A stretch of DNA of 37,674 nt from assembly GCA_021160575.1 (NCBI GenBank), contig JAGHCH010000061.1, positions 1 to 37,674 on the forward strand. The letters run 5' to 3'. Every line of letters starts with the position of its first letter. Within the stretch, counting starts at the first letter, position 1. Made by a program: the position numbers and the translations under genes. The DNA is from Thermoproteota archaeon. Its GTDB lineage: Archaea > Thermoproteota > Methanomethylicia > Methanomethylicales > JAGHCH01. A model generated the notes under the pieces. That model searched no databases and was not told the origin of the DNA. It worked only from the letters and a program-made list of their open reading frames with translations. Shown here one piece after another: positions 8,162 to 37,674 of the stretch.

Positions 8162-9223
8162 TTGGCAAGTGCAAAGCTCATTGTAGCACTACTAGTAATT
8201 GTTGTCGCTGGTATTGGAGGTTATGCATGGTATCTTCAAAGCCAACCAAAGGTTCTAACCATAAGAATAGGCTATCAGCCATCTACCCATCAAGTGGCGG
8301 AATTCATTATCTCAGCTAAGGGCTGGCTTGTGGAGGAGGCTAAGAAGCTGGGCTATGAGCTGAAGATCGAGGAACACCTCTATCCCTCGGGGCCTCCGGA
8401 AATGGAAGCGTTTATGGCTGGCAGATTGGACGTGGTGTACGTTGGGGCTGCTCCCGTGGTCAATGAAGTCGGGCAAGCCAAAGGCAAGGGTGCACCCCTA
8501 GCTAAGATAGTAGCTTCTACTAACACCCAAGGCTCGGCATTAGTCGTTAGGAAAGACTTCAACTACACTGGTCCCGAAAGCTTGAAGGGAGCAGTCATCG
8601 GCACCTTCCCGCCGGGAAGCATTCAAGACGCCATCCTCAAAGACTGGCTCACCAGCAACGGACTAACCTTCGGCGCCCCTGGAGAAGGTAAGGATGTGAC
8701 CATTATCGCTGGCGGTCCATCAGAGCTCGTCGAAGCTCTGGAGGCCGGAACCGCGGATGCCATTTTCGTTCCAAGTCCAGCGCCCGAGATCTGTGAACTT
8801 AGGGGAATCGGCAAATCTGTGGTGAACTCCTATGAGATGATGCCGGGACACGCCTGCTGCGTTCTAGCAATCAGTGATAAGTTCATTAAGGAGCACAGAG
8901 AGCTAGCCAAACTCATAGTCAAGCTGCATATAAAAGCTCAGAAGTTCATCAAAGAGAACCTCGATGAAACCATAGAAATTGCTGCACAGAGACTCTCCAA
9001 GGACTGGGGCTACGACCTCAGCTTTACCAGAACAGTGGTTGAGAAAGCCTATAAGGAGAACCCAACAGCCCTAGAATTCCCATGGGATCCCCACGAAATC
9101 GTGGACTCGGTGCTCAAATACGCGGAGATACAGTACAAGCTTAAATACATCCCCATACAGCTCACCTGTGATGACCTCTTTGACCTCGACCTCTACGATG
9201 AGGCTGTTGCCGAGATGAAGTGA
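8162..9223 (+). CDS. ABC transporter substrate-binding protein, NitT/TauT/SsuA family
   Basis: N-terminal TM anchor, IRIGYQPSTHQ, SGPPEMEAF.AG.LD..YVGAAP, PPGSIQD and HACC motifs; GGAGG SD. Confidence 0.9.
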   Translation: MASAKLIVALLVIVVAGIGGYAWYLQSQPKVLTIRIGYQPSTHQVAEFIISAKGWLVEEAKKLGYELKIEEHLYPSGPPEMEAFMAGRLDVVYVGAAPVVNEVGQAKGKGAPLAKIVASTNTQGSALVVRKDFNYTGPESLKGAVIGTFPPGSIQDAILKDWLTSNGLTFGAPGEGKDVTIIAGGPSELVEALEAGTADAIFVPSPAPEICELRGIGKSVVNSYEMMPGHACCVLAISDKFIKEHRELAKLIVKLHIKAQKFIKENLDETIEIAAQRLSKDWGYDLSFTRTVVEKAYKENPTALEFPWDPHEIVDSVLKYAEIQYKLKYIPIQLTCDDLFDLDLYDEAVAEMK

Positions 9224-9271
9224 GAATAGCCTTATACAGGTGTTAGCAATTAACTGGAAAGTCTCAGCAGG

Positions 9272-10066
9272 ATGGTGTTGCCATTGACTTCGAGGGATCT
9301 AATAAAGCGATCCCTCACAGTGGAGATCTCAGCTATACTCACCTTTCTCGCTCTATGGGAGGCAGTGGCTAGGTTCAAGCTATTGCCTGCTTATGCTCTC
9401 CCATCGATAGAGGAGGTTGTAGCAGCCCTCTACAGCCAGGCAGCCCTTGGGAATCTAACCTATGCCTTACCCCACAGTCTCCTCCACCTAGCTTTAGGTT
9501 TCGCCGCAGCCTTTGCAGTAGCCTTGCCTTTAGGCATGGCTATGGGCTGGTATAGAACTGCTCAACGCTTCTTTGAACCTCTCATCGGGATCTTCAGACC
9601 AATTCCGCCAATAGCATGGATTCCCTTCGCCCTCCTCTTTTTTGTCTCCCTTCTCCAAGCTTCAGCCTTCATTATCTTCATAGGCGCCTTCTTCCCCTTG
9701 GTCACTAACATCTTCTTTGGCTTCCGCAATGTTCCTAAGCAGCTGGCCGAGATAGCTCACTCCTTCGGAGCATCTGAGAGGGAGATTCTCCTGAAAGTAG
9801 CTTTTCCCTCAGCTCTACCCTCAGTACTCACTGGAGTGAAAGTAGGGCTGGGAGTGGCTTGGATGTGCGTGGTTGCGGCGGAGATGTTTGGCGCCCCAGG
9901 TTTAGGCTTCATGATCATGCAGATGCGTTACGTACACGATATAGCTGGCGTGGTAGCCTACATGGCGGTCATAGGTGCACTAGGCCTTCTTCTTGAGTTC
10001 CTAGTCAAACTTCTCGAACGCAAGCTCCTCAAGTGGAAAATCGGGCTAGTAGCGGAGGGAATCTAA
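9272..10066 (+). CDS. ABC transporter permease, NitT/TauT/SsuC family
   Basis: Multiple TM helices, RPIPPIAWIP, EAA-like loop (AHSFGASE) and WMCVVAAEM. Confidence 0.92.
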   Translation: MVLPLTSRDLIKRSLTVEISAILTFLALWEAVARFKLLPAYALPSIEEVVAALYSQAALGNLTYALPHSLLHLALGFAAAFAVALPLGMAMGWYRTAQRFFEPLIGIFRPIPPIAWIPFALLFFVSLLQASAFIIFIGAFFPLVTNIFFGFRNVPKQLAEIAHSFGASEREILLKVAFPSALPSVLTGVKVGLGVAWMCVVAAEMFGAPGLGFMIMQMRYVHDIAGVVAYMAVIGALGLLLEFLVKLLERKLLKWKIGLVAEGI

Positions 10067-10815
10067 TGAAACCAGAGATTATTGCTGATTCTCTCGTGAA
10101 GAGGTTCAACGATCTTTTGGTGTTAAACCACGTATCCTTCAATGTTTATCCCGGTGAGTTTCTCTGCATTGTTGGCCCCTCCGGATGCGGCAAATCTACA
10201 CTTATCAGAATTTTATTAGGGCTCGAGAAACCTGATGAAGGTCGCGTGGAAATCCATGGACATTCTCCAAATCCAAGGATGTGCAAGTGCATAGGCTACG
10301 TCCCACAAGATGACGCGCTCTTCCCGTGGAGAACAGTGCTCAAAAATGTGCTCTTCGGCTTAGAGCTGAAAAACGAAAACGGGGAAAAAGCTCTCGAAAA
10401 GGCCCACCAAACCATAAAGATGGTAGGTCTCTCCGGGTTTGAAAACTACTATCCTCACCAGCTCTCAGGAGGTATGCGGAAACGAGTAGCGCTTGCCAGA
10501 GCCGTAGCCGTTGATCCCCAAATACTACTCATGGACGAGCCTTTTGCCAACATCGATGCCCAGACGCGGGCCCTCCTTCAAGTGGAGCTCATGAACATAT
10601 GGTCTAGGCTGAGAAAGACGGTGGTCTTTGTTACTCACAACGTTGAAGAAGCAGTGTTCCTAGCCGATAGGGTTCTGGTTCTCACCAAGAGGCCAGCCAA
10701 GGTGAAGGCTGAGATCCCTATAGAGCTTCCACGCCCCAGAAAGCGGTTAAGCCCACAGTTTATTTCTGTTAGAGAACGCATCATAAGAATGCTAAAAGAG
10801 GAAGTTTCAATATAA
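10066..10815 (+). CDS. ABC transporter ATP-binding protein, NitT/TauT/SsuB family
   Basis: GPSGCGKST, LFPWRTV, YPHQLSGGM, LLMDEPF and VTHNVEEAVFLADR. ATG 10066 overlaps the permease stop. Confidence 0.93.
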   Translation: MKPEIIADSLVKRFNDLLVLNHVSFNVYPGEFLCIVGPSGCGKSTLIRILLGLEKPDEGRVEIHGHSPNPRMCKCIGYVPQDDALFPWRTVLKNVLFGLELKNENGEKALEKAHQTIKMVGLSGFENYYPHQLSGGMRKRVALARAVAVDPQILLMDEPFANIDAQTRALLQVELMNIWSRLRKTVVFVTHNVEEAVFLADRVLVLTKRPAKVKAEIPIELPRPRKRLSPQFISVRERIIRMLKEEVSI

Positions 10816-10874
10816 CACATACTTCACTTTTCATTAATTAGTGGGTTTTAAAGAATCTGATTTTTACTAAAAGT

Positions 10875-10892
10875 GGGCGAAAGCTATTTAGT
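10875..10892 (+). promoter_or_regulatory. Putative BRE/TATA promoter of mcrBGA
   Basis: GGGCGAAAG followed by CTATTTAG about 60 nt upstream of the proposed mcrB start; weak match. Confidence 0.3.
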
Positions 10893-10949
10893 CTAAGCTC
10901 GCCTCTAATGGATTACTGCCAGAAAGGCGTTTTAAAGAGGGAAGATATC

Positions 10950-12281
10950 TTGCCTAGGTACCCTGATAAAATAGACCTCTATGACGACCGTGGTAACCTC
11001 GTTGACACCAATGTGCCTCTTGAGGCCATTAGCCCTCTTCTGAACCCGGCTATCAAGCAGATGGTGCAGCTCATCAAGAGGTGTGTCGTCGTTGACCTCG
11101 AGGGTCTTGAAAAGGCTTTGGCCACTGGCGCTGTAGGTGGCGCTCGATGCATAGTGGCTGGTCGTTCTCTAAAGCTAGACCTAGTGGCAAACGCTGAAGC
11201 CATTGCTGACAAACTGGCTGAGTGCATTCGCGTGAAGCCAGACGACGACACTGAGGTCAAGGTCATAAGGGGAGGCAAGACCCTTCTAGTCTACGTCCCT
11301 AGCACAAGGTTCGAGGCTGGCGTTGAGTACACCACTGGCTGCACCACGGTTGCCGCTGGCCTTTGCTACACCATTATTGAGATGTTCAACGTAGACCTCT
11401 TCGACGCAGATCTTATCCACACTGCGGTCTGGGGTAGGCATCCGCAGACCGTAGATATGCTCGGCGGCTTCGTGAAGATGCTCTTAGCGATGCCTCAGGC
11501 AAATGAGGGTCCCGGCTATGCTCTGAGAAACGTCCCTGTAGCCCACTTGGCCATTATCACTAGGAAGAACGCCATGAATGCCGCTGCTCTAGCCTCAATC
11601 TTGGAGCACACTGCAGCTTTCGAGATGGGCGACGCCATCGGGCCCTTCGAGAGGCTTCACCTCCTAGGCCTAGCTTATCAAGGCTTAAATGCCAACAACA
11701 TGGTCTACGATCTAGTTAAGGAGAATGGCAACGGCACTCTAGGCGACGTTGTCCGATCCACTGTGAGGCGCGCTGTTGAGGATGGTGTGATCAGACCTCT
11801 TAAGAAGCTGTCTTCTGGCTATACCGTCTACACAACCGATGACCTACCGCTGTGGAATGCCTATGCCGCTGCTGGCCTCATGGCTGGAACCATGGTAGTC
11901 TGCGGTGCAGCTAGGGCGATGCAGCATATACCTTCAGTCATGATATACTTCAACGATCTAATTGAGAGGGAGACTGGTCTCCCCGGCGTAGACTTCGGCA
12001 GAGTTGCCGGAACAGGTGTGGAGATGAGCTTCTTCAGCCACTCCATCTACGGCGGAGGCAACCCCGTGGTCTTCCACGGCAACCACATTGTCACAAGGCA
12101 CTCAAAGGGCTTCGTCATCCCATGCGCCGCAGCTGCAGTAGCCCTAGATGCTGGAACAGTGGGCTTCACACCAGAGAGAGTTAGCGGAGTAGTCGGTGAG
12201 GCTCTAGGCGAGGTGCCTCTACTCAGAGAGCCTCTAAAGCATGTAGCTCAAGCAGCTTCTCAAATTAAGGGGGAGATATGA
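10950..12281 (+). CDS. mcrB: Methyl-coenzyme M reductase beta subunit
   Basis: DKIDLYDDRG, LEAISPL.NPAI, EGPGYALRN, GPFERLHLLGLAYQGLNANN and SFFSHSIYGGG (active-site Tyr). Start set to TTG 10950 after GAGGG. Confidence 0.97.
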   Translation: MPRYPDKIDLYDDRGNLVDTNVPLEAISPLLNPAIKQMVQLIKRCVVVDLEGLEKALATGAVGGARCIVAGRSLKLDLVANAEAIADKLAECIRVKPDDDTEVKVIRGGKTLLVYVPSTRFEAGVEYTTGCTTVAAGLCYTIIEMFNVDLFDADLIHTAVWGRHPQTVDMLGGFVKMLLAMPQANEGPGYALRNVPVAHLAIITRKNAMNAAALASILEHTAAFEMGDAIGPFERLHLLGLAYQGLNANNMVYDLVKENGNGTLGDVVRSTVRRAVEDGVIRPLKKLSSGYTVYTTDDLPLWNAYAAAGLMAGTMVVCGAARAMQHIPSVMIYFNDLIERETGLPGVDFGRVAGTGVEMSFFSHSIYGGGNPVVFHGNHIVTRHSKGFVIPCAAAAVALDAGTVGFTPERVSGVVGEALGEVPLLREPLKHVAQAASQIKGEI

Positions 12282-12282
12282 A

Positions 12283-13059
12283 ATGTCCGAGTGGAAGCCT
12301 CAATTTTACCCAGGTCAGAGCTCCATAGCCGCCAATCGCAGAAAGTATATTGACCCGTCCTTCCGGCCTAGGAAAATACGCTCGGTAAGCGACGAAGATA
12401 TCGTCAAGCTGCTAGGGCACCGAGCTCCCGGAGAAGCCTACAGATCGGTCCATCCACCACTCGAGGAGATGGGAGAGCCAGATTGTCCAATACGAAAGCT
12501 AGTAACACCGACTCCTGGTGCCAAGGCAGGTGACAGAATTCGATATATACAGTTCACTGACTCCGTATACTTCTCGCCACTAGTTCCATACATGAGGGCT
12601 TGGGTGGGCCATTCAAGGTACCGTGGCGTGGACATAGGTGTCCTATCTGGAAGAAGCCCCCTTGAGGCCAGAGAAAGGGACGTGGAAATAATTGCAAAGG
12701 AGTTCATAGAGACCGAATGGTTTGATGCTGCTAGGACTGCTGTCAGAGGCGCTACTGTGCACGGGCACTCTCTTAGGCTAGATGAGAACGGCTTAATGTT
12801 CGATGCCCTACGAAGATACGTCTACGACAAAGAGACAGGTGAAGTTGTCTACGTAAAGGATCAAGTAGGTGTGCCACTAGACAAGCCTATCTCCGTAGGT
12901 AAGCCGCTGCCTGAAGAAGAGCTTAAGAAGGTCACAACTACCTTCCGTGTGGACGGCGTGCCTTTCAGAGAGGACAAGGAGCTCATTGAGTTTGTCCAGC
13001 GTGTTCATGAGCTTAGAACAAGAGCTGGCTTCAACCCTGAGAAAGTAAAAGGTATTTAG
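12283..13059 (+). CDS. mcrG: Methyl-coenzyme M reductase gamma subunit
   Basis: [42 protein letters not shown] and [20 protein letters not shown]. Confidence 0.97.
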
Positions 13060-13099
13060 AGTCATGGTTAAAAGTAGGGGAAGGAGGGAAAGATCGAAA

Positions 13100-14794
13100 A
13101 TGAGTGCTCGAGGCCCTGAATATTACACAGACAGGGAGAAGATGTTCCTCTTCGCGCTGAGGAGGAAGTTCAAGGAGAAGCCTGAAGAGCGCTACACCAA
13201 GTTCTACATCTATGGAGGCTGGCAGCAGTCAAAGCGCAAGCGCGAGTTCGTCGAGTGGGCTAAGAAGTTGGAGAAGGAGAGAGGCATACCCTTCTACAAC
13301 CCAGACCTACACCTAGGAGGTATCCCCGTAGGTCAAAGAGTCCTCATGAGCTACCAGCTCTCAGGCACCGACATCTTCTGCGACTGTGACGACCTCCACT
13401 TCTGCAATAACGCCGCCATGATGCAGATGTGGTGGGACATCCGCAGAACAGTCATTGTAGGGCTAGACATGGCTCATACCATCCTAGAGAAGAGGCTGGG
13501 CAAGGAGGTCACCCCTGAGACAATCAACCACTACTTAGAAGTTCTGAACCACGCTCTGCCTGGTGCAGCTGTAGTGCAAGAGCACATGGTTGAGATTCAC
13601 CCCGCCATAGTAGCCGACAGCTATGTGAAGGTCTTCACTGGAGACGACGAGCTGGCCGACGAGATTGATGATAGATTCCTCATTGATATCAACAAGGAGT
13701 TCCCGCCAGAGCATGCTGAGCAGCTCAAGAAGGCTATCGGCAAGAGGCTCTATCAAGTCCTTAGAATGCCCACCATCGTAGCCATGACCTGCGATGGAGG
13801 CACAATGTACAGATGGGCTGCTATGCAAATCTCGATGTCAATGATCAACTCCTACAAGCTGATGGCTGGAGAGTCAGCCATCGCAGAGTTCGCCTACGCT
13901 GCCAAGCACGCTGAGGTCATTGTTATGGGCACGCCCATGCCCTGGAGAAGAATTAGATCACCCAATGAGCCTGGAGGCATACCTCTAGGCTACATCGCCG
14001 ACATCTGCCAAGCTTCAAGGGTGCGCCCAGACGACCCAACATGGGTTGCCCTAGAAGTCATCTCAATGGCCGCCGTGCTCTACGACCAGTTCTGGTTCGG
14101 CAGCTACATGAGCGGAGGCGTAGGCTTCACCCAGTACGCCACCGCAACCTACACTGACAACATCCTAGACGACTACTGCTACTACGGAGCCGACTACGTC
14201 CAGAAGAAGTATGGAGGCTTCGCCAAGGCTAAGCCAAGCTTCGACGTCATCAAGGATGTAGCCACCGAGGTCACCCTCTACGGCCTAGAGCAGTACGAGC
14301 TTTATCCATCGCTGATGGAGACCCACTTCGGAGGCAGCCAGAGAGCCGCCGTAGTCGCAGCTGGCGCCGGAGTCTCCGTATCTCTAGCTACTGGCCACGC
14401 TACCGCCGGAGTGAATGGCTGGTATCTGAGCCAGCTCCTCCACAAGGAATCCATGGGCAGACTGGGCTTCTACGGCTACGACTGCCAGGACCAGTGCGGT
14501 TCAGCTAACAGCTTCAGCTGGAGAAGCGACGAGGGCCTGATGTTCGACCTCAGAGGCGTCAACTACCCGAACTACGCCATGAACGTAGGACACCAGTCCG
14601 CCTACGGAGGCATCGTCTCAGCGGCTCACGGCGCAAGAGGCGACGCTTGGTGTGTCAACCCGCTAATCAAGGTGGCCTTCGCCGACAAGAACCTCAAGTT
14701 CGACTTCACCAGGCCGCGCTACTGCTTCGGCAAGGGCGCTATCAGGGAGTTCCTACCAGCAGGGCTGCTAGATCCGATCATCCCGCCGCACTAA
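13100..14794 (+). CDS. mcrA: Methyl-coenzyme M reductase alpha subunit
   Basis: GAAVVQEHM (F430 axial Gln), [43 protein letters not shown] and [12 protein letters not shown]. Start ATG 13100 after GGAGG. Confidence 0.98.
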
Positions 14795-20851: not shown

Positions 20852-22207
20852 GTGAAAATCGCGGTTGTCACTCCTGAAGTTTACACTTATGGCGCTATGC
20901 TGGTAGCTGGTTCCTTAGAGGAAGCTGGACATGAAGTTAAGCTGATCAAGGTCGCTGATCTACGATCTCCTCCGGTGGACGAGCTAAGAAACTACCCCAT
21001 GGTTTGCCTCGGCCTTTACTCCACCCTTCACATAGCTAAATTAGCTCCGCTTATACGGCAGCTTGCTAAAGCTGGCTGCTACACCGTTGTAGGGGGTCCG
21101 GCCGCTTTTGAACCTAGAGTGGTTTTCTACCATATTCCTGAAGTTGATGCAGTGGTGGTTGGTGAAGCTGAAGACTCTATAGCCGCTTTAGCCAACTTGT
21201 TCTCTAAAGCCTCTCCTAAGCCTCCTCCAAAAGACCTTGAAGGTATTCCTGGGGTATTTTTCGTGGAGGGCGATGAAGTTGCTGGCACTCCTCCTAAACC
21301 AGTAGACTTGGACAAGCGCCCTCCACCCAAGATCCCCCCAGACATCTACAGAGAGAACATTCGAGGAGCCAACGTCTACATGGAGATTCTCCGCGGCTGC
21401 CATGGCAACTGCACCTTCTGCCAAGTGCACTGCATGTTCGGGAGAGTTATCCGCTGTAGAGCTCTAGAAGACGTAGTTGCCGAGGCTAGGGAGTTCTCAA
21501 GAATGGGAGCTTCAAGAATAGCCATTAGTGGAGGCACAGTCACCTACTATAGATGCAGCGGCTATTCTTTCACCGACCTCCTCCATAGCCTCTCTTCTCT
21601 AGTCGGTCCTGACAATCTTTCAACACCTGACGTTAGAGTTGATGCAGTGGATGATGAAGTGCTTGAAGCTATAAAGAGGTACACAATAGGGTGGATTTTC
21701 TACGGCATAGAGTCTGGCAGCCAGAGAATGCTCAATAAAATGCGTAAGGGAATTACCCTCCAGCAGATCAAAAATGCTGTGGAAATGGCTAGAGAACTTG
21801 GGGTAAAGGTGGCCGGTTCCTTTATCGTCGGCTATCTAGGAGAGAGCGATGAAGACTACGAAGAGACCAAGCAGCTAGTGGAGGAGCTTTCTCTCCACGA
21901 CTGCTTTGTCAGCATAGCCGAGCCTTTGCCCAGAACCCCCTACCTTGAAGAGGTGCTCAAGTCACCCCTCTCTGAAAACCCAGTGTTCGTAAAGGATCAA
22001 GGGCTCTATGGGAGGAAGTATGGGCTTACAGTGGCTGAAGCGAGAGCCTTCGACCTCATGATAACTGGCTTCATCTCAAAGCCTAGGCTGGAGCTTCTGT
22101 CAAGAGATGTCGAGCTCTCCTTCCTTCAAGAAGCGAAGAGGCAAGGGGAAGATATACGAAAAGCAACCCTAATGCTGCGGCAAGCCCTCACTCAGCTCTC
22201 TCTATGA
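20852..22207 (+). CDS. mgmA: B12-binding radical SAM protein, MJ0865/TIGR04014-like; probable MCR glutamine C-methyltransferase
   Basis: N-terminal PEVYTYGAML.AG, LYSTLH and VGGP B12 domain; IRGANVYMEILRGCHGNCTFCQV (CxxxCxxC), RIAISGGT, PDVRVD and GIESGS. Lies 6 kb from mcrA. Confidence 0.78.
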   Translation: MKIAVVTPEVYTYGAMLVAGSLEEAGHEVKLIKVADLRSPPVDELRNYPMVCLGLYSTLHIAKLAPLIRQLAKAGCYTVVGGPAAFEPRVVFYHIPEVDAVVVGEAEDSIAALANLFSKASPKPPPKDLEGIPGVFFVEGDEVAGTPPKPVDLDKRPPPKIPPDIYRENIRGANVYMEILRGCHGNCTFCQVHCMFGRVIRCRALEDVVAEAREFSRMGASRIAISGGTVTYYRCSGYSFTDLLHSLSSLVGPDNLSTPDVRVDAVDDEVLEAIKRYTIGWIFYGIESGSQRMLNKMRKGITLQQIKNAVEMARELGVKVAGSFIVGYLGESDEDYEETKQLVEELSLHDCFVSIAEPLPRTPYLEEVLKSPLSENPVFVKDQGLYGRKYGLTVAEARAFDLMITGFISKPRLELLSRDVELSFLQEAKRQGEDIRKATLMLRQALTQLSL

Positions 22208-23477: not shown

Positions 23478-24458
23478 GTGGGGATGGGTTCCTTGCTACA
23501 AGAGAGCTTACAGCAAATCACCGAGGAACTTCGAAAGTTTCGAGGGCTCTCAAGGAAGTCCTGCATAGGCGACATCTTGAAGGTCTTCGGAGAAAGAGAA
23601 TTCGATGACGCTGGTTTCCTCGATATAGATGACTTCTATATAGTGGTCTCAACCGATGGGATAACCGAAGATCTGGTGAAGGCGGATCCATGGCTAGCTG
23701 GCTACTACTCCGTGCTGGTAAACGTGAACGACGTTGTTGTGAAGGGAGCTAAACCTCTAGGCTATGTCAACGTAGTTTCCTCTCCTAACAGTCAAACCCG
23801 GCTGATGATAGCCAAGGGCATCGAGGCCGCGCTTAAGAAGTATGGGCTGAAGCTCTTGAAAGGGCATACACACCCTGACACTTCTTATGAAGCTATAGAT
23901 GCCGCGGTGATAGGCGTTGCGAAGCGCATTGCAAGAAGCTCCACGGCAAAGCCAGGGGATAGCATCCTTCTTGCAGTAGACCTCGACGGCTCCTTTGGAC
24001 AGAAGGGATGGGTAAAGTGCTTCGACTCTACTCAGCATAAAAGCCCTGAAGAACTCCGGCAAATGCTCTTCACAGTAATCGACGTGGTCGAGTCCTCATT
24101 GGTCACCGCTTCAAGAGACGTCAGCGCCCCCGGAATCATCGGGAGCATTGCCATGCTCTGTGAGTCAAGCAACGTTGGTGCTTCCATCAACCTAGAAGCG
24201 GTACCAAAGCCTGAAAATACCTCTATCGTCGATTGGCTTACCGCTTATCCAGCCTTAGGTTTTATCTTCACAACGTCCAAAGCCCGAGAATGCCTCCGCC
24301 TACTCGAGAGCAAGGGTTACCACGTTTCTGTCATAGGCGAAGTCAACAATACTAAGAAAATCACCCTACAATACCGAGGAGAAAGCGAAATCTTTGCAGA
24401 TCTTAACACAGAGTCTATCTTCGGCTTCAGAAAGCCCATACACCCCTGCCTACCCTAA
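23478..24458 (+). CDS. mmp2: Methanogenesis marker protein 2 (AIR synthase/PurM-like)
   Basis: LRKFRGLSRK..IGD, DDAG, ADPWLAGYYSVLVNVND, GHTHPD, RDVSAPG and DWLTAYP. Confidence 0.82.
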   Translation: MGMGSLLQESLQQITEELRKFRGLSRKSCIGDILKVFGEREFDDAGFLDIDDFYIVVSTDGITEDLVKADPWLAGYYSVLVNVNDVVVKGAKPLGYVNVVSSPNSQTRLMIAKGIEAALKKYGLKLLKGHTHPDTSYEAIDAAVIGVAKRIARSSTAKPGDSILLAVDLDGSFGQKGWVKCFDSTQHKSPEELRQMLFTVIDVVESSLVTASRDVSAPGIIGSIAMLCESSNVGASINLEAVPKPENTSIVDWLTAYPALGFIFTTSKARECLRLLESKGYHVSVIGEVNNTKKITLQYRGESEIFADLNTESIFGFRKPIHPCLP

Positions 24459-24842
24459 GTGCATAAAGGCCGTTCTAAGCTGCTTCACGCCCCTTGTAGT
24501 CTTTAACCCGGCGATGAGTTCCTTTACTTTCTCTGATTCCCCTGAAATCACTAAAACTTCAAGGCAGCTCTTTTCATCGACATGAACGTGCATTAAGGAG
24601 TTTATGACATCTCCATATTCATGTTGAACTTCGAGAAGCTCTCCCCTCTGCCTCCTATCATAGAGGATCGTGATGGTGGCAATCACCTGTCCCCTTACAT
24701 CCTCGTACTCATGGTGATCAGCAATGAAGTTTCTGAGTGCTTGCCTGAAGAGTTCAGAACGACTGGCATATCCATACTTTTTAGCGACTTCATCGAGCTG
24801 AGAGGTTAACTCCTTTGGGAGTGAAATGCTTATAATGTTCAT
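24450..24842 (-). CDS. nikR: Nickel-responsive regulator NikR family
   Basis: RHH N-terminus (IISISLP..L...LD...GY.SRSE) and QH...MHVH.....CLE with all four canonical Ni ligands. Confidence 0.88.
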   Translation of the reverse strand: MNIISISLPKELTSQLDEVAKKYGYASRSELFRQALRNFIADHHEYEDVRGQVIATITILYDRRQRGELLEVQHEYGDVINSLMHVHVDEKSCLEVLVISGESEKVKELIAGLKTTRGVKQLRTAFMHLG

Positions 24843-24950: not shown

Positions 24951-25934
24951 ATGCGTTTAACCATTTTAGTAATACTGCTGTTGTTTCTCTTAATACCTAC
25001 AACTGGAGGAGCCCTTGAAAATAAGGTAGTGGTAGCTGTCTCCGTGCCTTCGCTATCATATATTGTAAAAAGTGTTTTAGGAGATTATGCTGAAATAGTG
25101 GTTATAGTTCCGGAAGGTGTAGATCCACATCTCATCCAGTTCTCTCCCGATCTCCTCTCCAAGGTTTCTAATGCTGAACTCCTCGTGCTGACAGGGCATC
25201 TCCCCTTTGAGCAGAAGCTCTGTCAAGAAGTTGGCCCTCAGAGGTGTCTCACACTTAAAGACTACTTAAAGGAGGGCGCTGTTCTGCTGAAACTGCCTAG
25301 TGGCGAGTTAAATCTTCACGCCTATTGGTTACATCCAAAGAATGCTCTCGCAATAGCCTCGGCATTGTGCAAGAGAATTTCCATTTTGCATCCTGAGTTG
25401 AAAGATTTCTGTGAGACCTCTCTGGCAAAGTTCGCGGATGATGTGCAACAGTTCTTGAAGAGTTCCTCCTCAATTATGAGGGAGCGTCAAATGGTCAACT
25501 GCCCTGTTCTGGTGGTCTTCCCAGCCGAAATGTACATTGCCAATGCATTCAACTTGACAGTAGCTGAAGTCTTAGTGGAAGGTGAGCTGGCCCCCTCAGC
25601 TGAGAAGTTGTCGAAGATCTCCGAGATGGTGGAGAAGGGAGAGATTCAGCTCATAGTAGCATCTGATGTGTCAATGTATACTAAAGCTGGTGAATACGCT
25701 GAAGGCTTCGCGAGAGATCATGGAGTGCCATTAGTCCGCGTTGCTGTCCTCTCTGGAGCTTTCTCTGACTACCTCGACTTGATGTACTACAATTTGGGGG
25801 TTATTACATCCTCCTACTTGAAGGGCTCATCAAAGAGTCATAGCGATCTCTCCTTAGTTCTAGTGCCTATACTCGCAGTAGTAGCATCTATTGCAGCCGC
25901 TGAAAGCTTCATCCTGTGGGGGAGAAAGCCTTGA
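24951..25934 (+). CDS. Metal ABC transporter substrate-binding protein (ZnuA/TroA cluster A-I)
   Basis: Signal peptide, PEGVDPH, NLHAYWLHPKNA and a C-terminal TM anchor; AGGAGG SD. Confidence 0.88.
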   Translation: MRLTILVILLLFLLIPTTGGALENKVVVAVSVPSLSYIVKSVLGDYAEIVVIVPEGVDPHLIQFSPDLLSKVSNAELLVLTGHLPFEQKLCQEVGPQRCLTLKDYLKEGAVLLKLPSGELNLHAYWLHPKNALAIASALCKRISILHPELKDFCETSLAKFADDVQQFLKSSSSIMRERQMVNCPVLVVFPAEMYIANAFNLTVAEVLVEGELAPSAEKLSKISEMVEKGEIQLIVASDVSMYTKAGEYAEGFARDHGVPLVRVAVLSGAFSDYLDLMYYNLGVITSSYLKGSSKSHSDLSLVLVPILAVVASIAAAESFILWGRKP

Positions 25935-26713
25935 GCTATGCCATAGAAGTTGAAAACCTCACAGTAACTCTCAACTCTACAGTTGTACTTGATAGTCTCT
26001 CCTTCAAGCTGCCGCATCCAAGCTTTCTGGCAATTATGGGCCCTAATGGTGCTGGAAAGACTACTCTGATTAGAGTTCTTCTAGGCTTTCTGAAGCCGGT
26101 GAAAGGGAAAGTTAGAGTTTTTGGAATAGATCCAGTTGAGCATCCATCTGGAGTGAGGGCTCTAGCTGGGTATCTTCCTCAAAAGGAGAGAATTTCCTTC
26201 GAGATTCCCATGTGCGTGAAGGATGTTGTGTTGATGGGTAAGCTTCTCAAGAAATCTCCTCCAAGGGTTCCCACCCGAGAGGATATTGAAGCTGCGAGAG
26301 ATGCTCTCCGCGCTGTAGGCCTCGAAGAACTCTGGAACCGCTGTTTTCGAGAACTCTCGGGAGGGCAGCAGCAGCGCGTTCTCCTCGCTAGATTGCTAGT
26401 CGCTGAGCCTAAGATAGCCTTCCTCGATGAGCCCTTTGCCGGTGTAGATGTGCAAACTCAACAAGCGTTAACAGCTCTCCTCCATAAGCTGGTGCGGGAA
26501 AGGAAGGTAACCATTGTCCTTGTAACTCACGATGTGAACCCGATTCAAGAGCACACCGACTACATCTTGTTGCTGAACAGGAAGGCGATAGCCTTCGGAC
26601 ACCCCACGGAGGTGATTACCTCGGAGAATCTCTCCAAGATGTATGGTGCTCCCATCAAGGTCATTCAGTATGGTCAATATTGCTATGCCATCACAGGTGA
26701 TGTCCATGCTTGA
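25931..26713 (+). CDS. Metal ABC transporter ATP-binding protein (ZnuC-like)
   Basis: GPNGAGKTT, GYLPQ, LSGGQQQRVLLAR and LDEPFAGVD. TTG start overlaps the upstream stop. Confidence 0.92.
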   Translation: MSYAIEVENLTVTLNSTVVLDSLSFKLPHPSFLAIMGPNGAGKTTLIRVLLGFLKPVKGKVRVFGIDPVEHPSGVRALAGYLPQKERISFEIPMCVKDVVLMGKLLKKSPPRVPTREDIEAARDALRAVGLEELWNRCFRELSGGQQQRVLLARLLVAEPKIAFLDEPFAGVDVQTQQALTALLHKLVRERKVTIVLVTHDVNPIQEHTDYILLLNRKAIAFGHPTEVITSENLSKMYGAPIKVIQYGQYCYAITGDVHA

Positions 26714-27524
26714 ACCCTTCCTAGTGAGAGCACTGGTTGGCGCTCTTTTAACCTCTATTATAGCCGCTACCAGCGGAACCTTCTCAGTTCTCCGCGGGCT
26801 CTCCTTTCTGGTCTCCGGCGTAGCACACGCAGCCTTTGGAGGAGTTGCGCTAGGAATTTTCCTCCAAGAAGTTATAGGCGTGAAGTGGTTTCACCCTCTT
26901 CTAGGAGCCTTACTCTTCGCAGCTATTGTAGCTGTTGGAGCTGGATATGCTGGTGAAGGCGGTTTCACGGCTAGGATGGAGGCAGCCATTGGAGTGATCT
27001 TCGCCTTCTCCATGAGCCTCGCCGTGCTAATCATGTTCTACCTCCCTGCAGAGAAGATCCCCCTCATCTGGGGTTTCCTCTTCGGAGACATCCTCCTCCT
27101 CACCAACGAAGACCTTTTTCTGCTAGGGGCTATGACCTCCCTAATGATAGGCTTCACCATAGTCTTCCATAGAGAGTTCACCTACATTATCTTCGACCCC
27201 GAGACGGCTGAAGCATATGGCATGCGCAGCAGAGCATACCACTACCTCCTCCTCGTCCTCTCCGCCTTAGCCATAGCGGCAGCTACTAAAGCCGTGGGCG
27301 CGATACTGGTGTACGCGGTGATAGTAATTCCAGCAGCTACATCCGCTCTGGTGGGGAGGAGTATTCCATCCATAGCCTTGAGGGTATTTCTCATAGCAAT
27401 CTGCTGCCAATACCTAGGGCTCGCAGCCTCGGCAGTCTTCCAAGCAGCTCCAAGCGCTGTAGCAGGGGTTCTAGCAGCCCTCATCTACCTCATCATCCTC
27501 CTCGCTAAGAGGAGGGGCCAGTGA
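26706..27524 (+). CDS. Metal ABC transporter permease (ZnuB-like)
   Basis: GVAHAAFGGVALG, FLFGDIL, FDPETAEAYG and VGAILV...IPAA. Confidence 0.92.
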   Translation: MLEPFLVRALVGALLTSIIAATSGTFSVLRGLSFLVSGVAHAAFGGVALGIFLQEVIGVKWFHPLLGALLFAAIVAVGAGYAGEGGFTARMEAAIGVIFAFSMSLAVLIMFYLPAEKIPLIWGFLFGDILLLTNEDLFLLGAMTSLMIGFTIVFHREFTYIIFDPETAEAYGMRSRAYHYLLLVLSALAIAAATKAVGAILVYAVIVIPAATSALVGRSIPSIALRVFLIAICCQYLGLAASAVFQAAPSAVAGVLAALIYLIILLAKRRGQ

Positions 27525-36430: not shown

Positions 36431-37228
36431 TTGGAAAATCTTCTCAGCGCAGTTAGAGGCGAAGTTAAGGAAGCTGTGATTTTAGCAGCAGGTCTTGGAA
36501 CCAGAATGAAGGAGCAGTATCCTTCAACACCCAAGTTCGCCATTCCTATAGGCAAGATCCCCCTCATTCTCTTTCCCTTCAAGGTATTGCAGAGGTTTGG
36601 TGTAGAAAGGTTTACCATAGTTGTGGCCAAGGATTTCTCCCACATCCTTAAAGGGATAATTAGCCACGTCGCTGGGCCGGAGGTCGAAGTAACCATAGTA
36701 GAGAACCCTTCCCCTGAGAAGGGTAATGGCTACAGCTTCTTTCTCACAGAGAACTCCACTACCAGCCAGTACTTCTTCGTCTCCATGTGCGACCACCTCT
36801 ACCCTCCAGCTTTACCAGCCAGATTGGCAGACGCCCTAAAAGCAACGCCAGCAGATCTCATCGTAGGCGCTGACTCCATCCCCATTTACATCAACCTAGT
36901 TGAAGCAACGAAGATTAGAGCAAACGATGAAGACCGCCTCCTAGCAATAGGCAAAAACCTCAACTACTACAACTTCGTCGACGCTGGCGTCTTCATAGCC
37001 AGCCGAAGGCTCTATCAGCTCTTCAGCTCCCTCCAAGAACTTCGCGTAATCGAATTCTCAACAATAGTCAAGGCTGCGGCAAATGCTGGGTTCAAAGTAT
37101 TAGTCTGCGATGTAAGCGGCATCCCATGGACAGATGTGGATACTCCTGCCGACATCCTAGACCTCCTAGGAGGGAAACGAAGAGAGGTCCTGAACTCCAT
37201 CCTCAGCGAGGTAAAGTTCGATGAGTAG
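36431..37228 (+). CDS. ipct: Nucleotidyltransferase, probable CTP:inositol-1-phosphate cytidylyltransferase
   Basis: AVILAAGLGTRM, PK, N..PEKGNGYS, MCDHLY, EATKI, DAGVF and WTDVDTP; adjacent to dipps. Confidence 0.82.
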   Translation: MENLLSAVRGEVKEAVILAAGLGTRMKEQYPSTPKFAIPIGKIPLILFPFKVLQRFGVERFTIVVAKDFSHILKGIISHVAGPEVEVTIVENPSPEKGNGYSFFLTENSTTSQYFFVSMCDHLYPPALPARLADALKATPADLIVGADSIPIYINLVEATKIRANDEDRLLAIGKNLNYYNFVDAGVFIASRRLYQLFSSLQELRVIEFSTIVKAAANAGFKVLVCDVSGIPWTDVDTPADILDLLGGKRREVLNSILSEVKFDE

Positions 37229-37674
37229 CGGTGCCTTCAAGAGCACCGATGGCTATGTCTCAAGGTATATTAACCGTAGGTTCTCCACCCCAATTACCAA
37301 CTTCATAGTTAGGCACAACATCCCCCTAACCCCCAACCAAGTATCGGTTATCTCCTTCCTAATAGGAGCAGCTTGCCTCCCCTTCTACCTACTAGGACAT
37401 CCGATAATCGCGGGCATCCTGGTGCAAGTCTCCTCCATAGTAGACGGTGTCGATGGAGAGCTTGCTAGAATTTTGAACATGTCCAGCAAGTTCGGCGCTT
37501 TTCTAGATGCCGTACTCGATAGGCTTGCCGACGTCTTAGCAGTTTTGGGAGCGGCTCTCTATCTCTCCCTCAAAATGCCGATCTCTCCACTGCTGCTGGC
37601 CGTATTCATGCTAGCGGTGAGCGGCTCACTAATGGTCAGCTACCTCCATATCAGAACTCAACACGACTTAGGAA
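37221..37674 (+). CDS. dipps: CDP-alcohol phosphatidyltransferase, probable di-myo-inositol-phosphate phosphate synthase (partial, runs off window)
   Basis: Hand translation MSSGAFKSTDGYVSRYINRRFS...TPNQVS...DGVDGELAR.....SKFGAFLDAVLDR. Absent from the ORF track. Confidence 0.85.
   Translation, partial: MSSGAFKSTDGYVSRYINRRFSTPITNFIVRHNIPLTPNQVSVISFLIGAACLPFYLLGHPIIAGILVQVSSIVDGVDGELARILNMSSKFGAFLDAVLDRLADVLAVLGAALYLSLKMPISPLLLAVFMLAVSGSLMVSYLHIRTQHDLG

Follow-up and report, generated by a model that had tools for sequence, protein, structure and literature searches.

A single archaeal contig of 37,674 bp (contig JAGHCH010000061.1 of assembly GCA_021160575.1; C60), with a GC content of 50.7%, was analysed over its entire length and is referred to below as the window. 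It carries three adjacent open reading frames (ORFs) on the + strand, mcrB, mcrG and mcrA, which encode the subunits of methyl-coenzyme M reductase (MCR). Genes and sequence features of this operon, together with the gene complement of the host genome, make it probable that a canonical 'group II' MCR supports H2-dependent methyl-reducing methanogenesis in a family-level branch of the Methanomethylicia.

An intact mcrBGA operon

The operon and its leader comprise the following features.

10816-10949, + strand: AT-rich spacer and mcrB leader, with TTTTAAAG boxes and GAGGGA before TTG 10950 (read directly)
10908-12281, + strand: mcrB, MCR beta subunit, 457 aa from ATG 10908; TIGR03257 624.7 bits (cut-off 516.25); Pfam MCR_beta_N and MCR_beta; motif FFSHSIY
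12283-13059, + strand: mcrG, MCR gamma subunit, 258 aa; TIGR03259 380.5 bits (cut-off 172.1)
13064-14794, + strand: mcrA, MCR alpha subunit, 576 aa; TIGR03256 983.8 bits (cut-off 767.75)

All three ORFs are intact and translate without stops. Pfam matches span the full length of each subunit with E-values of 1e-65 to 1e-141 and the NCBIfam equivalog cut-offs are exceeded, which excludes a chance match. In a comparison with 21 related loci, identity to relatives reaches at most 76% for McrB and 77% for McrG. The operon differs from those of class I methanogens, in which mcrD and mcrC lie between mcrB and mcrG; here neither gene is inside the operon, and mcrC and an mcrD-like gene are found on contig C70. 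No tRNA and no member of an Rfam family was detected within the window.

The longest mcrB ORF opens at ATG 10908. An alternative start at TTG 10950, with the sequence GAGGGA 6-8 nt upstream, yields a 443-aa McrB. Both the Pfam and the NCBIfam alignments start at residue 20 of the 457-aa ORF, where the TTG 10950 form begins, and for this reason TTG 10950 is probably the true start. The TTTTAAAG boxes and the GAGGGA sequence are a putative promoter and a putative ribosome-binding site, respectively. For mcrA there are two possible starts, 13064 (576 aa) and M13, encoded at 13100 (564 aa), and public collections contain both forms.

The encoded enzyme resembles methane-type reductases

A first-pass annotation made from the letters of the window had called the enzyme a divergent reductase of the methane type, and every motif that it quoted is present in the translations. 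We aligned the window McrA with two divergent paralogues and 11 reference McrA sequences. The motifs VVQEHM, KHA..RR, GFTQY, GSQR, GFYGYD..DQC and AMNVGH of McrA, which we take to be catalytic and modified sites, and FFSHSIY of McrB are all in the canonical state. These conserved residues point to the narrow aromatic pocket of a methyl-CoM (CoM, coenzyme M) reductase. When compared with chains of known structure, McrA scores 898 bits against MCR I of M. kandleri (1e6v), about 831 bits against Methanothermobacter MCR I and 537 bits against the ethyl-CoM reductase (ECR) 7b1s. Its identity to solved MCRs is 68-70%, and it is collinear with the class I enzymes (1e6v; 3pot/1hbm/5a8k) over residues 24-575 with the quoted motifs conserved.

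The first-pass annotation also singled out several variant motifs. These do differ from class I enzymes: the residue after GYD is Leu in class I MCRs and Cys in the window McrA, and class I IWL (YDQIWLGSY in Methanothermobacter and Methanocaldococcus), LRGP and HQGEY correspond to FWF, LRGV and HQSAY. They are not unique to the window, however. The Cys after GYD occurs in most McrA proteins of Methanomethylicaceae and Nezhaarchaeota, and the variants, HQSAY included, are common to that clade and read as its signatures. By these characters the enzyme is predicted to be a canonical methane-type 'group II' (Thermoproteota-type) MCR and not a new kind of enzyme.

An alkyl-CoM reductase (ACR) acting on ethane or longer alkanes was considered because a second McrA, 41-43% identical, is found in six other genomes of the host's order. 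Such paralogues share superfamily and subunit architecture with the window MCR, as does 7b1s, but those compared here (from G008 and G010) fall in a separate long-branch clade (branch 0.65-0.8). At four motifs, GFTQY, GSQR, GFYGYD and AMNVGH, they depart from the canonical state, with GAPMR/GAPIR, GSLR, GFFAQD and NV-VAN at the corresponding columns. The host genome has a single McrA, with no divergent second copy; it keeps all four motifs, groups with MCR, and scores 898 bits against MCR compared with 537 against ECR. An alkane substrate is thus already contradicted and hardly credible. The divergent second McrA proteins with ACR-like motifs occur in genomes G008, G010, G014, G016, G021 and G025, all of the sister family.

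McrA belongs to a Methanomethylicaceae/Nezhaarchaeota clade

A search of a collection of 5.8 billion proteins gave 1439 matches among 8000 scored candidates, 120 of which were listed. Apart from the host's own sequence, the nearest McrA proteins among the matches listed are 85% identical (no organism label), 84% (Ca. Nezhaarchaeales) and 82% (Ca. Methanosuratincola subterraneus), and McrA of class I methanogens reaches no more than 70%. A search of GTDB species genomes confirmed 585 out of 599 candidate stretches, of which 80 were kept; among these, McrA identity is 86% for loci L001 (Methanomethylicaceae) and L003, 85% for L027, 84% for L002 (Nezhaarchaeota WYZ-LMO8) and L006, and 83% for M. 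verstraetei LCB70. Taken overall, McrA from elsewhere reaches 86-88% identity at best.

A phylogeny, which the first-pass annotation had proposed as a check, was computed for McrA. The maximum-likelihood tree contains 49 rows and was rooted with ACR-like rows as outgroup; 8 of 57 sequences, all from Methanobacterium, Methanocaldococcus or Methanothermococcus (L021, L023, L024, L025, L026, L028, L030 and L031), had been dropped as redundant. The window McrA falls with 100/100 support in a clade of 17 rows, made up of 12 Methanomethylicaceae, four Nezhaarchaeota or 'Bathyarchaeota'-labelled rows and the window itself. This clade nests in a larger group of Thermoproteota, Korarchaeia-like and Archaeoglobi sequences, and it corresponds to the 'group II' MCR described in the available text of 10.1101/2025.10.16.682713. 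The tree bears out the earlier assignment to MCRs of the TACK type.

Within the clade the window McrA stands alone on a branch of length 0.1. Grouping with the Nezhaarchaeota rows has support of only 66/22, and forcing the window together with Methanomethylicaceae costs 0.95 log-likelihood units (approximately unbiased test, p-AU 0.445). The position of the window McrA inside the 17-row clade is therefore not fixed, and McrA trees do not separate it from the Nezhaarchaeota group, whose WYZ-LMO8 enzyme is 84% identical and also has HQSAY.

The host is a family-level branch beside Methanosuratincola

The assembly comprises 1.40 Mb in 131 contigs, with an estimated completeness of 91.9% and contamination of 0.97%. 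It contains no small-subunit rRNA, and placement rests on McrA, contig synteny, SRP54 and genome taxonomy. Among the genomes searched, the family of the host contains no further species (the family search returns one genome). Besides this family the order has one other, with 32 species; McrA is present in 31 of them. One genome of the order, G026, has its McrA at the coordinates of that in CP186953.1, Ca. Methanosuratincola verstraetei LCB70; the order is therefore taken to be Methanomethylicales (NCBI: Methanosuratincolia), a name that follows from the LCB70 match. Host SRP54 shares 59-65% identity with the proteins of the sister family and 53-63% with those of the seven other families of the class (60 of 62 genomes matched), values that indicate a deep branch. 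That this class has MCR has been known since 2016, and cultures of members have followed, according to the available text of PMC12244365 and 10.1101/2025.10.16.682713.

The host is thus an uncultured archaeon on a family-level branch beside the cultured Methanosuratincola, in the class Methanomethylicia/Methanosuratincolia. The non-euryarchaeal origin given in the first-pass annotation agrees with the Methanomethylicales synteny of the contig and with the assignment of the genome to the order of LCB70. Among the host groups that it named, Methanomethylicia proved right; the host does not belong to Nezhaarchaeales (MtrA and Mer are missing) or Korarchaeia. Its suggestion of a new lineage holds in so far as no second species of the family was met among the genomes searched. 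The lineage is, however, already represented in public sequence: the McrA cluster at 90% identity has eight members (from NCBI, ENA, JGI and Logan), one of them labelled Ca. Methanomethylicia archaeon.

Several markers agree with the earlier label of a thermophile, and the host is probably hyperthermophilic. Reverse gyrase is found at 1148.5 bits, over cut-off. The end of the window carries genes for synthesis of di-myo-inositol-phosphate, a solute pathway of thermophiles:

36431-37673, + strand: inositol-1-phosphate cytidylyltransferase and di-myo-inositol-phosphate-phosphate synthase halves in two ORFs, the second of which runs off the contig

Against NF041135 the halves score 144 and 114.5 bits, below the equivalog cut-off, and cover profile positions 2-210 and 224-353. 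The genomic IVYWREL fraction of 0.445 converts to about 82 °C and lends weak support; applied to 20-kb loci, where its figures are unreliable, the same formula gave 45 °C for Methanocaldococcus. These hyperthermophile markers set the host apart from M. petrocarbonis, which grows best at 55 °C (PMC12244365, available text). The reverse gyrase sequence is split over the ends of two contigs (C85:32-3007 and C33:2-754; profile positions 3-951 and 925-1171), and the pieces are probably one gene broken by assembly.

A gene for MCR glutamine methylation

Six kilobases downstream of mcrA lies a gene for a modification enzyme:

20852-22207, + strand: mgmA, B12-dependent radical SAM MCR glutamine C-methyltransferase, 451 aa; TIGR04014 487.1 bits (cut-off 360)

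MgmA exceeds the cut-off in one of the 33 genomes of the order, that of the host, and the next best score is 164.5 bits. Two further genomes of the class exceed the cut-off (3 of 62 in all), both from a family inferred as Nezhaarchaeales, ten genomes of which were compared. Outside its own lineage, the nearest MgmA sequences among the matches listed are 47-49% identical and come from Nezhaarchaeales, a Thermoproteota record and Hadarchaeales. A tree was computed from 64 rows, namely 62 of 120 listed matches and two paralogues from the host genome. In it, a 10-row clade supported at 99% by the SH-like approximate likelihood ratio test joins host MgmA, as sister, to the homologues from Nezhaarchaeales/Thermoproteota. 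This arrangement looks like ancestral retention together with group II MCR and not like a recent gain from euryarchaeal methanogens.

The window McrA probably carries a 2-methylglutamine made by MgmA. The available text of PMC11796369 states that Methanomethylicales lack MgmA and ties this absence to methylotrophy. LCB70 has no MgmA; the host genome, which has it, is an exception to the first statement.

Gene complement for methane metabolism

Contig C70 carries a cluster that encodes McrC (281.2 bits; cut-off 213.5), an McrD-like protein, Mmp3 (488.9 bits), Mmp6 (144.3), Mmp17 (98.3) and Mmp7 (393.2), all four Mmp proteins over cut-off, as well as a RamA/AcsV-like corrinoid activase that scores below its equivalog cut-off. 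The best match to PF04609 (C70:6700-7500) was initially considered as McrC and proved to be Mmp7; McrC is the weaker match at C70:2963-3628. Component A2 was found at 783.7 bits (cut-off 517.1).

Methyl transfer to CoM is represented by an MtaA equivalog (431.5 bits; cut-off 400). In addition, an MtaA/CmuA-like gene (268.9 bits) is followed by a gene for a corrinoid protein (TIGR02370, 217.9 bits; cut-off 215.3), and this pair is orthologous, at 62-69% identity, to a pair in LCB70 and G035. The MtaA/CmuA-like gene is present as two partial copies (C119:10327-10993 and C107:2-937), both cut by contig ends and 89.6% identical over 566-568 bp. Either the gene is genuinely duplicated or the assembly broke on variation between strains. 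The host also has one MtrH-like gene, as reported for relatives.

Five genes resembling [NiFe] large subunits were identified, along with six proteins with CCG domains (HdrB/D-like), two of which are encoded within gene clusters that resemble complex I. No protein was recognised as HdrA or MvhADG, for which no dedicated search was made. In both complex-I-like clusters, on contigs C62 and C89, a fused [NiFe] subunit of NuoC/NuoD type is encoded together with a 4Fe-4S protein and an HdrB-like CCG protein. NuoH and an antiporter-type subunit are additionally encoded by the C62 cluster, which is complete; the C89 cluster is cut by the contig end. Both may represent copies of a single locus.

Profile searches for MtrA, Mer, Mch and CdhC returned no match in the 91.9%-complete host genome, and none of 2567 frames of at least 100 aa has two or more CxxCH motifs, so that no multihaem cytochrome is visible. 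The missing Mtr and Wood-Ljungdahl methyl-branch proteins are what a methyl reducer of the Methanomethylicales type would be expected to show. LCB70 resembles the host in giving no match to MtrA, Mer, ComA or ComE. Nezhaarchaeota WYZ-LMO8, from a different order of the class, differs in having both MtrA (227.9 bits) and Mer (468.6 bits); a cultured member of that group is described as methyl-dismutating in the available text of 10.1101/2025.10.16.682713.

Direction of the reaction and source of the methyl group

MCR is reversible in principle, and the window by itself gives no direction, as the first-pass annotation stated. The whole genome is more informative and favours methanogenesis. Anaerobic methane oxidation, with MCR working in reverse, would need MtrA, Mer, Mch and CdhC to take methyl-CoM carbon to CO2, and none of these was found. 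Without these proteins and without a multihaem frame, there is therefore no visible route for methyl-CoM oxidation and no visible electron outlet (dissimilatory sulfate and nitrate reduction genes were not searched for). The cultured members of the order are methanogens, and we regard methane oxidation as very improbable. The relative M. petrocarbonis, which has been isolated, reduces methanol and monomethylamine with H2 (PMC12244365, available text). Given this relative and the lack of an oxidation route, H2-dependent methyl reduction is the best reading of the genome, and we consider it likely.

We infer the following pathway from gene content. A methyl group would reach CoM through the corrinoid protein and MtaA-type methyltransferases, and MCR would reduce methyl-CoM with coenzyme B to methane. 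The heterodisulfide would be re-reduced by HdrB-like proteins encoded beside [NiFe]-hydrogenase or complex-I-like modules. CoM is probably imported by an SsuABC-like transporter encoded upstream of mcrB, and MgmA would methylate a glutamine of McrA to give 2-methylglutamine.

A number of observations weigh against this pathway or parts of it. Searches for the mtr and mta/mtb/mtt genes, also proposed as a check in the first-pass annotation, found MtaA and no MtrA, and the substrate-specific enzymes MtaB, MtmB, MtbB and MttB (families PF12176, PF05369, PF09505 and PF06253) gave no match in the host genome of 131 contigs. A tblastn search with MtaB and MtmB of relatives was likewise without a match at E<=1. 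In contrast, the four relatives compared have two MtmB copies each, and LCB70 also has MtaB. The presence of MgmA runs contrary to the published association of its absence with methylotrophy (PMC11796369, available text). Genes for a 2-oxoacid:ferredoxin oxidoreductase and an ADP-forming acetyl-CoA synthetase share the contig with mcr, and MCR-encoding Thermoproteota may also grow non-methanogenically (10.1101/2025.10.16.682713, available text). The McrD-like protein reaches 76.7 bits, under its cut-off of 100, and the SsuA-like protein of the transporter likewise falls below its curated cut-off. With respect to CoM synthesis, ComA was found in none of five genomes, a weak test in that the M. 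acetivorans control also lacked a match, and the searches covered ComA and ComE, not MMP16/ComF or cysteate synthase.

The missing methyltransferases could have a trivial cause. The host might be an ordinary methanol or methylamine reducer like Methanosuratincola, with mtaBC or mtmBC in the roughly 8% of the genome that was not assembled. The MtaA gene stops 187 bp short of the end of contig C109, and in LCB70 a stretch of 8 kb takes in mtaB, mtaC and mtaA, so that an MtaA gene at a contig end fits this explanation, as do the fragmented assembly, the RamA-like activase and the MtmB genes of all four relatives. It would require, however, that four independent methyltransferase families were all missed, with no fragment of MtaB or MtmB at a contig end. 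Moreover, the host has one corrinoid-protein gene as compared with four to six in relatives (four in LCB70), and genomes G002 and G003, two of the closest McrA relatives, also lack MtaB. We consider this explanation possible, though on the unlikely side. MtbB was absent from the four compared relatives too. Their MtmB homologues are arranged as tandem pairs (G035:C6:544358-547070, G002:C86, G003:C22 and G004:C1:1355201-1357941) with no in-frame stop, hence no apparent pyrrolysine codon.

Alternatively, the host might rarely or never use MCR for energy and instead live mainly by fermenting peptides or 2-oxoacids to acetate, with mcr retained or facultative. The four-subunit 2-oxoacid:ferredoxin oxidoreductase (Por) and the ADP-forming acetyl-CoA synthetase, encoded 5-10 kb upstream of mcr, would suit such a metabolism, as would the lack of any detected substrate-specific methyltransferase; the caution on non-methanogenic growth quoted above points the same way. 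But the operon is intact, and the activation set (McrC, Mmp3/6/7/17 and A2) and the modification enzyme have been kept. The Por genes are also syntenic in relatives of the methanogen M. petrocarbonis, which, according to the available text of PMC12244365, did not use pyruvate, lactate or glucose for energy. A mainly fermentative host is therefore improbable.

A more far-reaching possibility is that this hyperthermophilic deep family truly lacks all four known methyltransferases, has kept the ancestral group II MCR and MgmA, and makes methane from an unrecognised methyl donor. The route would run through the order-wide MtaA-like/corrinoid pair, as an MtsA/MtsB-like two-protein system, or through the orphan MtrH-like enzyme, with scavenged CoM. 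This combination of claims is speculative, and we think it unlikely to hold in full.

Conserved gene neighbourhood and a candidate coenzyme M importer

The genes around the operon include the following.

8162-9223, + strand: SsuA-like substrate-binding protein of a sulfonate/nitrate/taurine-type ABC transporter; Pfam NMT1_2 107 bits; SsuA_fam 140.3 bits, below the 163.5 cut-off
9272-10066, + strand: ABC permease, SsuC/TauC-like; Pfam BPD_transp_1; NCBIfam SaoP, TauC and SsuC all below cut-off
10033-10815, + strand: ABC ATPase, SsuB/TauB-like; Pfam ABC_tran 124 bits
14837-15469, + strand: DUF483 protein directly after mcrA; Pfam PF04467 108 bits
15993-20789: PhoU and PstSCAB phosphate transport block between the DUF483 gene and mgmA; not at that position in relatives
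23478-24458, + strand: AIR-synthase-related protein, methanogenesis marker 2-like (mmp2-like); TIGR03267 272 bits, below the 365 cut-off
24450-24842, - strand: NikR-type nickel regulator; Pfam NikR_C and RHH_1
24951-27524, + strand: ZnuABC-type metal ABC transporter; Pfam ZnuA, ABC_tran and ABC-3

The 45 proteins of the window were compared with those of the 21 related loci. A shared gene order emerged, which reads Por, hypothetical protein, hexapeptide protein, DUF2124, DUF4443, helix-turn-helix protein, SsuABC, mcrBGA, DUF483, HAD and mmp2-like. It recurs fully or largely in eight flanked Methanomethylicales-type loci (L003-L006, L008-L010 and L027); locus L001 spans only 2 kb. At these loci, the non-mcr genes of the shared order are 30-70% identical to those of the window, as compared with 67-86% for the Mcr subunits. 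The mmp2-like gene is near mcr in 14 loci (39-60% identity). The DUF483 gene follows mcrA in nine loci (42-47%), including Nezhaarchaeota WYZ-LMO8; the protein had no relative in the PDB at E<=1, and its structural matches in the Atlas all had TM-scores below 0.4.

LCB70 and M. petrocarbonis LWZ-6, of the same order, have mcrBGA without internal mcrC or mcrD between the same upstream and downstream flanks as the window, with McrA 82-83%, McrB 72% and McrG 76% identical. They belong to a separate family, and their neighbouring genes are only 30-70% identical to those of the window. Within the 10-kb flanks of the relatives, the Pst/PhoU genes, MgmA and the block of NikR and metal-transporter genes after DUF483 are peculiar to the window. 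WYZ-LMO8 does not have the upstream synteny in common with the window, its matches being DUF483 and an ABC ATPase at 34% identity.

The SsuABC-like transporter genes (8162-10815) lie directly upstream of mcrB and keep this place in Methanomethylicales loci. The SsuA-like gene is upstream of mcrB in 9 of the 21 loci (25-43% identity), the permease gene beside mcr in 12, three of them Archaeoglobi-type, and the ATPase gene upstream of mcrB in 12 (51-58%), namely eight Methanomethylicales-type loci, the 'Bathyarchaeota'-labelled L007 and three Archaeoglobi-type loci. Permease and ATPase thus keep their place also in group II mcr loci of the Archaeoglobi type. ComE was over cut-off in none of the 33 genomes of the order, nine of which gave weak matches to thiamine-pyrophosphate enzymes of at most 44 bits.

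The retention of this transporter beside mcrB and the absence of ComE matches suggest an order-wide dependence on imported CoM. On the basis of gene position and family, the SsuABC-like proteins are a candidate CoM importer, an assignment that could equally well prove right or wrong. The available text of PMC12068725 names ssuA/ssuC of M. acetivorans a 'CoM-specific ABC transporter', and a medium for a related class includes CoM (PMC12700198, available text). A limited literature search found no report linking this transporter to mcr in this group.

Further downstream, the NikR-type regulator and the metal transporter could possibly serve nickel supply for cofactor F430, a link that we offer as a guess. 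The genes of segment 24450-31504 have no counterpart in the 10-kb flanks of the relatives; apart from the two just named, they code for a protein with a metallo-beta-lactamase fold, a DUF362 and ferredoxin protein, and two proteins of the radical SAM type.

Implications

That MCR-encoding Thermoproteota are methanogenic was shown only recently, and work on how diverse they are and which substrates they use is still under way (10.1101/2025.10.16.682713, available text). To this group the host adds a deep, family-level and probably hyperthermophilic branch beside the cultured Methanosuratincola. The operon itself is ordinary; the interest lies in MgmA, the missing methyltransferases and the likely import of CoM. 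The gene complement is unusual in that the MCR and its activation machinery are complete, a substrate-specific methyltransferase is not recognisable and MgmA is found in this genome alone within the order.

With MgmA present and the known methyltransferases missing, the host is an interesting case for the proposed link between MgmA and methylotrophy. Were methane indeed made from an unrecognised donor, it would be a counter-example with which to test whether MCR glutamine methylation is linked to methyl-CoM supply. A dependence of the order on imported CoM, if true, would matter for cultivation. The host genome thus offers a handle on how methyl-CoM is fed to the enzyme, on the purpose of 2-methylglutamine in some MCRs and on what may be CoM import throughout the order.

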